Positions 1,858 through 62,019 of a stretch of DNA of 64,000 nt are shown one piece after another. Source of the DNA: Octopus sinensis (Eukaryota). Position 1 is the stretch's first letter. Every line of letters begins with the position of its first letter. The notes below the pieces were generated by a model. That model was given only the letters and a program-made list of their open reading frames with translations, was not told the DNA's origin and did no database searches. Where the stretch lies: positions 173,352,001-173,416,000 of the forward strand of contig NC_042999.1 of NCBI RefSeq assembly GCF_006345805.1. The letters are read 5' to 3'. The position numbers and the translations under genes were made by a program.

Positions 1858-2680
1858 TAAATTTATATATAGAGGGCATTATACATACATGCCAGAAGGC
1901 ATTATAAATAAATGCCACACGCTAAGAGGGACAATTAGTCATTTCTACCAAAAATATTACTAATCCCACCGAATGCAATTTTTCAAAGTAAGACATTTAA
2001 AAAATGTCTTAGCGTGTGGCATTTATGTATAATGCCTTCTGGCATGTATGTATAATGCCCTCTATATATAAATTAATATGTTCAATAAGAAATAATTATT
2101 TTCGAAATTTTTTCTCTTATGAGGTTTTCACGCTATCTACCTGACAATTTCTTGTTAAGTTTTCCTTATTAAGTAGTTGTCCTTAATTGCTAAATTTTTA
2201 TTCCGAAAAAACTTTTCCTCTCCCGAAATGCAATTCGTAAAAGTTTGCCATTTATCCGGATGTAATATATGTAAACTCACCCATGTGCTTCGTTGATGTT
2301 GATCAGTTAGCTGATCGGCTTAAGCGGGGCAGGGTCGTTGTTTATTTATAATACATTCAGGCCTGCTGATGAATACGTAAGTATGAAATCACTGTGATAC
2401 AGGTCTATATTTTTTTAAATGTCTTACTTTGAAAAATTGCATTCGGTGGGATTAGTAATATTTTTGGTAGAAATGACTAATTGTCCCTCTTAGCGTGTGG
2501 CATTTATGTATAATGCCTTCTGGCATGTATGTATAATGCCCTCTATATATAAATTAATATGTTCAATAAGAAATAATTATTTTCGAAATTTTTTCTCTTA
2601 TGAGGTTTTCACGCTATCTACCTGACAATTTCTTGTTAAGTTTTCCTTATTAAGTAGTTGTCCTTAATTGCTAAATTTTT
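1858..2680 (+). mobile_element. Non-coding hammerhead-bearing element, family A (pLTR/retrozyme-like): 1.4 tandem units plus inverted 5' arm
   Basis: Direct repeat 2007-2199 = 2488-2680 (period 481); arm 1858-2004 is the reverse complement of ~2411-2555; (TA)n on both sides; no ORF; HHR inside. Confidence 0.85.
2359..2406 (+). ncRNA. Type I hammerhead ribozyme (family A)
   Basis: Stem I AGGCCTG/CAGGTCT; core CTGATGA 2366-2372; stem II ATAC-gtaa-GTAT; GAAA 2385-2388; palindromic stem III TCAC-t-GTGA; AUA triplet, cleavage predicted after 2399. Confidence 0.9.
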
Positions 2681-2983
2681 ATATATATATATATATATTC
2701 TTATCGATCAACTTGCGCGGATGACTTCTCTATGGTGATTAAATATTTGTCCTGCACTTTAGCTCGCTCCCTCCATCCAATCGACACTCCTTGTACTAAA
2801 TTATTGTGCCCTTTGCGTCAGATGTGGAGGTTATCGTAGGAGAACGTGAGACGAAATGTGTTGCTCAAGAACGCAACTCGAGAATGTAACCTACGATCTG
2901 GCGTGCAATACACTAACTAGAAGGCTATGCGCCTTCACACACAAAAACACACACATACATACACATAAACACACACATAAATA

Positions 2984-4249
2984 CAAGGATTGAACAAAAT
3001 AATAGAAACACCTAGCATCATAGCATCATAATTTTGAAATATCTATAAAACCCTCAGAAGCTTGTCTATTTTTGTTTTTTATTTATTATTTGTGTTGCTT
3101 CATATGTTTTGCTAAAATTGGTGTTTCTTTTTAGATATCATCAGAAAAAAGTAATTGAAATTCATTAAAATGACAGATCTATCGGACTTTCAAAGAAGGA
3201 AATTGTTAGTGCTCCTATGGCATGCGCTAGCGTAACGAAAACAGACGATATATTTGGTGTATCTAGAAGTACTATCTCGAAAATAATGACAGGCTTTGAG
3301 AAAGAGAGAAAAACATCGTCGAGACAAAACTCCTGAAGAAATCCAAAACTTTCAGATAGAGACCATCAGACTCTTAAGGAAATTGTTAGAAAGGTTCATA
3401 AAAGTACAGATCCCAAAATTATTGCAGAGCTTAATGACCACCTCGGGAACCCAGTTTCCACAAAACTTTTCGCCAGGAGCTGCACAAAGCTGGATTTCAT
3501 GGGAGGGCTGCAATCAGAAAACAACCACTTTCAAAAACAACCATTGCAAAGCGTTTAGATTGGAATAAAATCCTACAGAATTGCTCCCTAGAATAGTGAA
3601 AGAATGTTATTTTTTCGGACGAGTCATCCTTTACCTTATTTCCAACTACCAGCTGAGTATACGTATGAAGACAGACAAAATACGCATTTGATCAAGACTG
3701 CCTTCTTCAAACTTTTAAACATGGAGGAGGATCTGTGATGATCTCGAAGTTGGGTGGGGTATATCATGGAAATCCGCCGGCGCAGTGGTTTCCCTTCATA
3801 GCAGAATTAATAGTCAAGACTATTTAAGTATTTTATCTGATCAAATTCATCCTATGATTGCGGAACTGTTTCCGGAGGGAAACGCAATCTTTCAGGATGA
3901 TAATGCACCAATTCACACAGCAAAAGTTCTTACTGAATGGCACGATGAACATTCAAGTGAAGTTGAATATTTTATCTTGGCACCACAGTCTCAATATTAT
4001 TGAACATTTATGGTGCATATTAGAAAAACAAGTAAGGAGTCGATAACCTCCACCATCATCACAACAAGTACTGGAGGTTGTTGTAGCTGAAGAATGGATA
4101 AAAAAGTCCTTTGGAAAAAGTTGAAACTTTGTACGAGTCCGTACCTCATAGAATTCAGGCTGAGCTTACTGCCAAAAGCAATCCTACCCCATGTCAAAGT
4201 AAATTTGTTTGAAATTTTAAGGTGTTCCCATTATCCTGTCCAACCCCTG
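2984..4249 (+). mobile_element. Tc1-like DNA transposon, full length, transposase disrupted
   Basis: Imperfect ~30-bp TIRs (CAAGGATTGAACAAAATAATAGAAACACCT / AGGTGTTCCCATTATCCTGTCCAACCCCTG) flanked by TA; motifs FSDES, KHGGGSVM, FQDDNAPIHTA, LNIIEHLW broken by stops and frameshifts. Confidence 0.92.
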
Positions 4250-4284
4250 TATGTATGTATATATATATATATATATATATATAT

Positions 4285-4452
4285 AATATTAATTAGAGAC
4301 AAAACCACTATTTTGCAAATCAAACAAACAAAGACTTAATCCAATACATAAAAAAATTCTAATTAATATTATATAATATTTTACTATAAAATTGGATTCA
4401 ATCCTAAATCTGATTTTCCTTGTAAATTTGGATTTATTCCCTAATATTTATT
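4285..4452. repeat. Two oppositely oriented fragments of the family found at 56147-56360
   Basis: GAGACAAAACCACTATTTTGCAAA... matches 56237-56290; 4370-4450 is the reverse complement of 56147-56232; bounded by (TA)n. Confidence 0.7.
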
Positions 4453-61299: not shown

Positions 61300-61346
61300 T
61301 GTCAAAATATTTTCGTCGCTTTGAAACCGCGACATGTTCACTGACA
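61300..61346 (-). ncRNA. Hammerhead with G3-C8 swapped core (left arm)
   Basis: Minus strand TGTCA-GTGAACA-T-GTCGC-ggtttcaaa-GCGAC-GAAA-ATAT-TT-TGACA. Confidence 0.72.
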
Positions 61347-61378
61347 AAAATTCGTGCTACATAACTTTTGTGAAGTTT

Positions 61379-61425
61379 TGTCAGTGAACACGTCGCGGTT
61401 TCATAGCGACGAAAATATTTTGACA
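61379..61425 (+). ncRNA. Hammerhead with G3-C8 swapped core (right arm)
   Basis: Stem I TGTCA/TGACA; core GTGAACA 61384-61390; one extra nt; stem II GTCGC/GCGAC; GAAA 61411-61414; palindromic stem III AATATT; U17. Confidence 0.72.
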
Positions 61426-62019
61426 CAAATGAAATTTAAATGTTGAAGTGAAACTAACGTTTTGTGTGTTTTTCAATGGCTTACAAGCATCTTCCATGCT
61501 GCAATTGTTTTTACTTTAGCACACGATCTCAGATGAAGTCATTTGCTATGCAATTACATCTCCGTAATTTTATTTTTAAATCACTTTGGATAAATGCCAG
61601 CAATGATCTTCTCAGGGTCTCCAATATTTTAATTTTGAAACAGTAATAAATCAGGGGCAGGGAGTGGCGTCGCAAAAAATTTATAATTTCTTAAATTTTC
61701 TTTTTTATAGCATACAAATATATTTATGGGGAGGGATATTGAAAAAAACATCAATACATGCGAGAGTAATAAAGAAACACGGAGTGTTGTCTTTGGGTGT
61801 GCTAGAAACAGCAGCCAAATTGCCCTTTTAATTATTCATTTTTCTCTCTGAAAATATTAACAATCTTTTAAAACATTTTATACTGAAAATGCTCTTCCGA
61901 TGGTTTTGAAGCTCAAAACAAAAAAAATTGACAAAATAGGTCCGGAATGGATGGTGAGAAGGGGAGCCGATTGCAAAAAACAGTTTTCAAAACTTTTATG
62001 TGAGAACAGATCAACTTGT

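Follow-up and report, generated by a model that had tools for sequence, protein, structure and literature searches.

A 64,000-nucleotide stretch of the Octopus sinensis genome (contig NC_042999.1, positions 173,352,001 to 173,416,000; hereafter the window), located about 1 Mb from a contig end in a genome of 2.72 Gb, carries many hammerhead ribozyme motifs that a preliminary description had attributed to non-autonomous, self-cleaving RNA elements. It is very probable that at least six families of Penelope type end here in type I hammerheads. Three of these (families D, E and F) would be truncated tails of protein-coding Penelope-like elements (PLEs). The other three (A, B and C) lack a protein gene, and Penelope enzymes probably copy them in trans. 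Cleavage by the hammerheads is predicted to be no more than slow and to proceed in dimers or with the assistance of protein. Family letters A to H are labels of this analysis, and L-numbers denote loci fetched elsewhere in the genome. The system is of an ordinary known kind, namely hammerheads in the pseudo-long terminal repeats (pLTRs) of PLEs together with retrozyme-like riders, and was anticipated by previous work (PMC4209133; PMC7229834; bioRxiv 10.64898/2026.07.22.740005; these and all other sources are cited for the parts covered here). What is added is an account of parentage, family by family, and two core variants that are fixed in autonomous lineages.

Hammerheads were sought with a type I descriptor that tolerated at most one core deviation and demanded a stem I of at least 4 bp, a stem II of at least 3 bp and a self-complementary stem III. 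Nine matches were obtained in the window (2366+, 10832-, 11360-, 11890-, 15656+, 53167+, 56353-, 61341- and 61384+), compared with a mean of 0.1 in 20 block-wise dinucleotide shuffles of the same DNA. This confirms that the motifs are genuine type I hammerheads, as first proposed; the positions at which they had been placed fall on stem I. Stem III is palindromic in all nine matches, and two features that the descriptor does not demand distinguish real motifs from chance ones. Of 56 distinct motifs taken from the whole of the fetched DNA, 30 have a G10.1-C11.1 pair, compared with none of 27 shuffle matches, and the stem III palindrome is fully paired in 46 of the 56 versus 7 of the 27. As monomers, the stem III strings do not fold; they form intermolecular duplexes instead, weakly for C and F (-1.7 kcal/mol) and for E (-0.2 kcal/mol), which fits what a dimer model requires. 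Both the dimer-type architecture and the PLE link that had been proposed hold.

The canonical core (CUGANGA, GAAA and UH, in type I order) is present in A1, B, D and the family form of C. It is not kept in A2 (U4C), F (A6U) and E (G3-C8), which are hammerheads by fold with variant cores. No hammerhead family is among the 150 Rfam matches listed for the window (of 158, E<=1). Of the sites originally called well formed, 15327/15649 (U4C and a damaged stem), 39825 (mutated stem III/I) and 61300/61379 (G3-C8 swap and UUU triplet) do not deserve the term. Across 1.87 Mb of fetched, largely targeted DNA, 322 descriptor matches fall into 24 sequence clusters with different stems, although single-member clusters may include chance matches. 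The descriptor itself imposes pairing, and the shuffles therefore serve as the control for stem covariation; such covariation is borne out by these differing stems and by a compensated stem I pair between F and a sister family.

Judged from sequence, families D, E and F are the 5'-truncated 3' ends, or pLTRs, of PLEs that encode a reverse transcriptase (RT) and a GIY-YIG endonuclease (EN) elsewhere in the genome. Their copies in the window are as follows.

56129..56600, minus strand: family D, 5'-truncated pLTR of a Hydra-type PLE; canonical core at 56353, predicted cut after 56319
53092..53298, plus strand: family F, young copy, a solo pLTR in (TA)n; A6U core at 53167, predicted cut after 53194
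18702..18880, minus strand: family F copy; A6U core at 18820
20340..20561, plus strand: family F copy; core at 20431 with U4C and A6U, within a 1.23-kb local duplication
21573..21794, plus strand: family F copy; core at 21664, duplicate of the 20340..20561 copy
61217..61508, unstranded palindrome: family E, 3' end of an RT and GIY-YIG PLE; two G3-C8 hammerheads, cores at 61341 (minus) and 61384 (plus), predicted cuts after 61305 and 61420, stem III AAUAUU, UUU cleavage triplet

The two adjacent F copies with cores at 20431 and 21664 lie in a local duplication of 97% identity. Variant copies at 18790, 20431, 21664 and 53162 had been listed before, but not recognized as a single A6U family. All three families share a fixed 3' end (at +103 in 38 of 50 F copies), a one-sided tail and an inverted, 5'-truncated copy.

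For D, two hammerheads arranged as direct repeats 4.9 kb apart (L308, positions 4223 and 9103) flank a broken Hydra-type RT/EN frame at 4532-6831, and a second D copy likewise follows such a frame (L306). The D parent retains DKT and aligns in pieces at 30-52% identity. For F, one locus (L183) combines a 651-amino-acid RT frame (Pfam RVT_1), a frameshifted GIY-YIG domain, an untranslated region (UTR) of about 900 nt and an A6U hammerhead. F also follows RT and GIY-YIG frames in L310 and L311 and EN in L312. For E, the extra upstream sequence of one bystander copy was used as a query and recovered 30 loci, of which 28 have an E hammerhead downstream. A GIY-YIG-type C-terminus lies about 1.4-1.7 kb upstream in L336, L351 and L352, and RT motifs occur in the adjoining L355. 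A profile of the E-parent frame family (15 homologues) matches Pfam-confirmed RT and GIY-YIG PLE frames of this genome with an HHalign probability of 99.7. Pfam found nothing in the Hydra frames or the E-parent frame, and solved structures give only weak RT matches. All parent copies seen are broken by frameshifts, and the full pLTR-frame-pLTR arrangement was recovered for D (L308) but as no full copy for E or F. By general resemblance, the F parent may be Neptune-like and the E parent of the Nematis type. A MITE (miniature inverted-repeat transposable element) origin of E was rejected in view of its one-sided tail, its solo copies and its upstream EN.

Intact PLE frames of 717-883 amino acids do exist in this genome. 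The shortest (L134, 717 amino acids, Hydra type) has the clade traits RWK, DKT, a CxCX5C linker and a (TA)n target and carries its own U4C hammerhead in the 3' UTR; at the DNA level it shares only microsatellite with the window. The other intact frames span 775-883 amino acids. A young two-frame family was also noted (L168:651-6719), in which a separate 479-amino-acid frame lies upstream of a 781-amino-acid RT/EN frame, in many near-identical copies. In a long E subfamily (L313-L316 and window 60900-61900), the palindrome lies between two partly homologous non-coding segments of about 1.2 kb and 0.9 kb, and the whole seems to have been mobilized as one unit of 2.3 kb. At 4275-4483, 43263-43336 and 60095-60185, in (TA)n, D and F are represented by short 3' stubs from which the hammerhead is wholly or mostly missing; these are absent from the earlier list.

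Families A and B are organized differently, as tandems that resemble retrozymes and, apart from the older A2, are young. Three elements of the window belong to them.

1872..2669, plus strand: family A1, ORF-less (without an open reading frame); one 480-nt unit, an overhang and an inverted 5'-truncated arm
10555..12033, minus strand: family B, ORF-less tandem with three hammerheads and a long stem II
15074..15862, unstranded inverted pair: family A2, an older A1 relative; U4C cores at 15386 (minus) and 15656 (plus), damaged stems

The A1 copy has its core at 2366-2372, a predicted cut after 2399 and the stem III AUCAC-U-GUGAU, and the B copy has cores at 11890, 11360 and 10832, with predicted cuts after 11803, 11273 and 10748. 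At least six families had been counted, and this number stands. Their flanks had been called unrelated, which is not so for A1 (2359) and A2 (15327/15649), since these are 74% identical over 417 nt.

Genome searches, in each of which the best 40 candidates were scored, returned 2,162 candidates for A1 (top copies 99% identical) and 1,136 for B (96-99% identity). The A1 unit measures 473-482 nt in 27 of 28 cases, with a longest stop-free stretch of 54 amino acids. B units measure 525-530 nt in the window and have a genomic mode of 592-593 nt (39 of 45), with a longest stop-free stretch of 66 amino acids; the unit counts of both families come from overlapping loci and include duplicates. Both families have fixed 3' ends (at +197 in 36 of 48 B copies), variable 5' truncation and inverted arms. 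That these two and C are also pLTRs of autonomous PLEs, with bodies that went unsampled, seems quite improbable. Three of the six families did turn out to be of that kind, in one case not until the extension had been repeated, and only the top 40 candidates per search were scored. However, A1 and B form head-to-tail repeats of a constant ORF-less unit, 96-99% identical, on many chromosomes and with up to at least eight units, and family C starts with a tRNA-like head in 20 of 29 loci. No PLE frame continues an A1 or B unit among 30 loci of each, the PLE matches beside them (2 of 30 per family) being, on our own reading, separate insertions. The proviso in the preliminary description that every family might be the solo pLTR of a PLE applies to D, E and F; its label of non-autonomous fails for these three but holds, as far as tested, for A, B and C.

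The circular units of A1 and B fold far better than shuffled sequences (z of -8.6 and -7.6, respectively; 30 shuffles each, one unit each). Together with the other sequence characters of retrozymes that A1 and B possess, and with the 606- and 892-nt ORF-less tandems that F forms at two loci (L029 and L032), this might suggest that all families are non-autonomous retrozymes spreading via self-cleaved circular RNAs. Such a reading is highly improbable: it is ruled out for D, E and F, whose upstream sequence runs into RT/EN frames; most copies of C, D, E and F are solo or inverted; and 5' ends do not pile up at the cut. Evidence of expression was set aside. One full B unit is tiled by contigs from two presumed-RNA runs, each of which has a single contig spanning the predicted cut, but a circle, a tandem transcript or DNA would fit alike, and a tandem and a circle give an identical junction in assembled contigs. 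For A1, a neighboring ordinary repeat was covered as deeply or more deeply in three of four presumed-RNA runs.

Several further features resemble or adjoin these elements. Additional ORF-less tandem hammerhead families with a long stem II and units of 535 nt and about 490 nt (L111:2848-5220, L170 and L308:399-1386) are absent from the window. Beside an A2 stub lies a perfect 70-nt palindrome centered on (TA)n (41219-41288), and a second fold-back of 175 nt (41323-41497) contains no recognized hammerhead. A multi-copy repeat at 2990-4234, presumably a Tc1/mariner remnant, is well covered in three presumed-RNA runs.

Family C is represented in the window by one truncated copy, and its tRNA head was not recognized in the preliminary description.

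39736..39915, plus strand: family C, 5'-truncated, starting in the B box of a tRNA-like head, followed by (AAT)n and a minimal hammerhead; core at 39830, stem III/I mutated, fails the descriptor

The family layout (2,419 genomic candidates) runs from a tRNA-like head, which contains A and B boxes, through (AAT)n and a minimal hammerhead to a one-sided tail. Of 29 loci, 20 have the head, and fold-backs have it in both arms, although ARAGORN called no tRNA in 14 C loci, and in several other loci (AAT)n is joined to unrelated upstream elements. A one-sided tail of about 30 nt is seen in 5 of 29 central copies and inverted partners in 7 of 29. There is no LINE-type (long interspersed nuclear element) 3' end, whether poly-A or a LINE-shared tail, and C ends instead in the hammerhead-bearing segment. 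In the literature searched, no description of short interspersed elements (SINEs) moved by PLEs was found.

The motifs, the family structure, the fixed 3' ends, the tandem and inverted layouts and the parent frames of D, E and F are read directly from the DNA, and a plausible route to them can be sketched. Element RNA would be transcribed, as the PLE literature implies, and in the case of C likely from its tRNA-like head. The RT/GIY-YIG protein would then nick AT-rich microsatellite DNA, and reverse transcription would initiate at a fixed internal site behind the hammerhead (as suggested by PMC11167929 and PMC8557442). Most elements had been said to abut (TA)n, and of the 11 examined, A1, B, A2, the F copies (F3, F2a/b and F1) and D have microsatellite at one end, whereas C, G and E have none. 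Reverse transcription would usually end early, with fold-back, as is also familiar from the PLE literature, and this would yield solo pLTRs, partial tandems and fold-backs. The template would be mostly uncut RNA, because copies retain the entire motif and do not begin at the cut. A and B likely also give unit-length, circular RNAs through dimer cleavage, as retrozymes do.

The 5' ends of copies bear on this scheme. No pile-up at the predicted cut was found for A1, B, C, E or F. Among F bystander copies, 9 of 20 start 103-109 nt upstream of the cut and 1 of 20 at the cut. In E, the 5' ends of the fold-backs and of two solo copies lie about 58 nt upstream of the cut, but the query used to collect the targeted E loci was palindromic, which biases this position. 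The F and E boundaries both follow TCAG and begin with AT (window 53092; L167:1001; L336), and CTAAC plus a pyrimidine tract lies just upstream of the E boundary (342 exact genome matches); these boundaries could be a start site with an initiator or a splice acceptor. With one locus (L005) and one extra arm left out, E arms are 90.6% alike within a locus versus 87.2% between loci and share 1.45 versus 0.28 changes other than C>T/G>A, which fits repeated fold-back from one template or later conversion.

Some findings weigh against the proposed arrangement of coding and protein-less families with mostly uncut templates. Of 25 D bystander copies, 6 have a start lying 0 to +8 from the cut, which hints weakly at cleavage of some templates; three of these six are copies of a diverged subfamily, whose alignment may simply begin there. 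A1 starts form a loose cluster from -8 to +16 (9 of 38 truncated matches, duplicate loci included). For A, B and C, no autonomous partner with common sequence was found in the roughly 2 Mb of fetched DNA, so their mobilization in trans is argued from architecture, and parents could exist unsampled, as was the case for E before further extension. The clade labels Neptune (F) and Nematis (E) are putative. Hammerhead cleavage itself is predicted from fold and core, and in one preprint eight of nine predicted retrozymes were without in vitro cleavage (bioRxiv 10.64898/2026.07.22.740005).

Two families carry altered cores, A6U and G3-C8, neither of which had been recognized as a fixed family trait. 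Genome-wide searches with exact patterns returned 12,974 matches for F (positions 6 and 7 left free) and 2,085 for E, with none for the controls, and bases were counted by hand in the first 100 matches of each pattern. In F, position 6 is U in 99 of the 100, and position 7 is U in 49, A in 23, C in 16 and G in 12. Position 17, examined in 50 distinct copies of F and its sister, is U in 26, A in 22, C in 2 and G in none, so that positions 7 and 17 appear to vary in the way a hammerhead permits. The sister family keeps A6. An alternative register for F (U3-N4-G5-A6) was rejected, as it leaves position 4 free and breaks the stems. In E, G3 is present in 96 and C8 in 93 of the 100 matches, both in 89 and C3-G8 in none; among aligned arms, G3 is kept in 44 of 47 and C8 in 43 of 47. 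By their sequence conservation, A6U and G3-C8 are fixed core variants in two autonomous PLE lineages.

One explanation, confined to E and F, is that the altered cores became fixed by chance because the master copies carrying them were successful; they would be dead relics, and the motif would no longer matter. A6 substitutions do lower activity (an A6C variant falls below 0.1 per min, PMC3088659), and PLE insertion in vitro was not reduced when the hammerhead was mutated (PMC11167929). In E, stem III is weak, the triplet is UUU and old copies decay freely (G12 is kept in 35 of 47 arms). On the other hand, F subfamilies whose flanks differ by 24-31% keep the core, stem II and stem I pairing while changing at positions 7 and 17 and in loop II, and E has changed both partners of the 3-8 pair. 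The relic explanation is unlikely, although less easily dismissed than the two considered above. For F and E, the fold is likely kept under selection while catalysis is probably reduced.

A broader proposal is offered only tentatively and might well prove wrong. Two autonomous Penelope lineages would have spread to thousands of copies with a changed 'invariant' core under a hammerhead-type constraint on the fold. The PLE hammerhead would then be retained not for fast cutting but as a ribozyme that is slow and switched by protein, or as a structural cue for the RT/EN protein. Tandems of the retrozyme kind would have co-opted the same tail, as would a SINE with a tRNA head that relies on Penelope machinery in place of LINE machinery. 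Related variants have precedents: natural U3-A8 cores are reported (PMC3088659; PMC4209133), and an engineered G3-C8 variant is mentioned (PMC3884650). No description of natural G3-C8 or A6U was found in the literature searched, although Lunse et al. 2017, on dimeric PLE hammerhead variants, may already list these cores. In the octopus, U3-A8 variants were seen in several families (L165:6163, L173:6069 and 7006, L315:8651/9008 and L105:288), one of them following an intact 780-amino-acid PLE frame. One copy of an unrelated family with a long stem II carries A6U (L310:3655), either by independent change or by decay.

The abundance of these elements was gauged from sixty 10-kb stretches taken at round coordinates on 28 contigs (599,600 non-N bases). 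They contain 16 descriptor matches at 11 sites, compared with a mean of 0.9 in eight shuffles, which extrapolates to about 45,000-70,000 intact motifs genome-wide. The window, with six sites that bear strict matches per 64 kb, is about five times as dense as this sample, and the 10 kb on either side of it contain no descriptor matches. Families B to F occupy 3,898 of the sampled bases (0.65%), and A, G and H have no match there; the suggestion that such elements form a large part of the repeats was overstated. Counts of hammerheads in genomes are likely too low, because A6U and G3-C8 cores escape standard descriptors and Rfam.

The remaining features of the window are decayed.

25516..25945, unstranded: family G, decayed palindromic element; CUGAUGA at 25710, GAAA lost
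28671..28852, plus strand: family H, decayed hammerhead-like copy; core remnant at 28749
27447..28110, plus strand: 3' end of a broken PLE with remnants of linker and GIY-YIG (33% to an intact PLE of the genome); absent from the earlier list
28873..31117, minus strand: broken Hydra-type PLE; RT 30815-30201, EN 29426-29178, inverted 3' copy 30736-31117

PLE remnants in the window had been named as candidate partners. They carry their own decayed hammerheads (near 28070-28110 in the first PLE; at 28939 on the minus and 31049 on the plus strand in the second) and are therefore rejected as parents of A to F. The long RT frames of the window were likewise rejected as partners, since they match Pfam RVT_1/zf-RVT and no PLE. 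At 45877-48152 (plus strand), frames of 389 and 316 amino acids (RVT_1, zf-RVT) lie frameshifted between (TAA)n tracts in what we take to be a Dong/R4-type LINE. A 5'-truncated LINE RT remnant at 26172-27171 (plus strand; RVT_1), presumably CR1/L2-like, is inserted into a family H copy.

Many hammerhead families in an invertebrate genome are to be expected. In Penelope elements, the hammerhead is a poor cutter, depends on protein and was dispensable for insertion in vitro. With intact PLE frames, the canonical D, the naturally weakened E and F and the protein-less A, B and C side by side in one genome, the importance of cutting could be tested on an existing set of elements, and the same set could show which protein moves which RNA.

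In the literature searched, no description of cephalopod hammerheads was found; Penelope is a known coleoid family (PMC8967140, which makes no mention of hammerheads in the part covered). Minimal PLE hammerheads (Cervera and de la Pena 2014, PMC4209133) are likewise type I, with a short palindromic stem III, an extra base between 9 and 10.1 and G10.1-C11.1. They also form many consensus families per genome, mostly as solo motifs, with some opposite-strand pairs and few in full PLEs. The core variant reported there is U3-A8, and the parts covered contain no A6U, G3-C8 or cephalopods. Hydra-clade PLEs, including Hydra-1_Obim (Craig et al. 2021, PMC8557442), match L134, the parent of D and a remnant in the window, whereas E and F come from other PLE lineages; File S1 of that study holds one octopus Hydra family and two octopus Naiads.

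Metazoan non-LTR retrozymes (PMC7229834; bioRxiv 10.64898/2026.07.22.740005) resemble A1 and B in being ORF-less tandems with a type I hammerhead per unit. Dependence on PLEs has been proposed for them, and Acropora has more than 6,000 motifs in 16 families; the parts of both sources covered do not mention octopus. At 480 and 593 nt, the units of A1 and B exceed those of coral, mussel and axolotl in length, but lie inside the 51-972 bp range of the preprint. Unlike retrozymes, A1 and B keep the marks of PLE insertion (a fixed 3' end and an inverted arm), and they are known from DNA alone. Schistosome SINE-like elements (reviewed in PMC6765202) join a promoter-bearing head to a hammerhead, as does C, but C has a PLE-type tail and fold-back insertions, and its source of RT is inferred. 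A further parallel is the Anolis Poseidon PAc element (Frangieh et al. 2024, PMC11167929), in which an internal RT start gives the tail, the hammerhead is protein-assisted and partly rescued by the engineered C3G/G8C change, and unprocessed RNA is the main insertion substrate. There the 3-8 swap is a laboratory mutant, whereas in family E it is the natural, fixed state.

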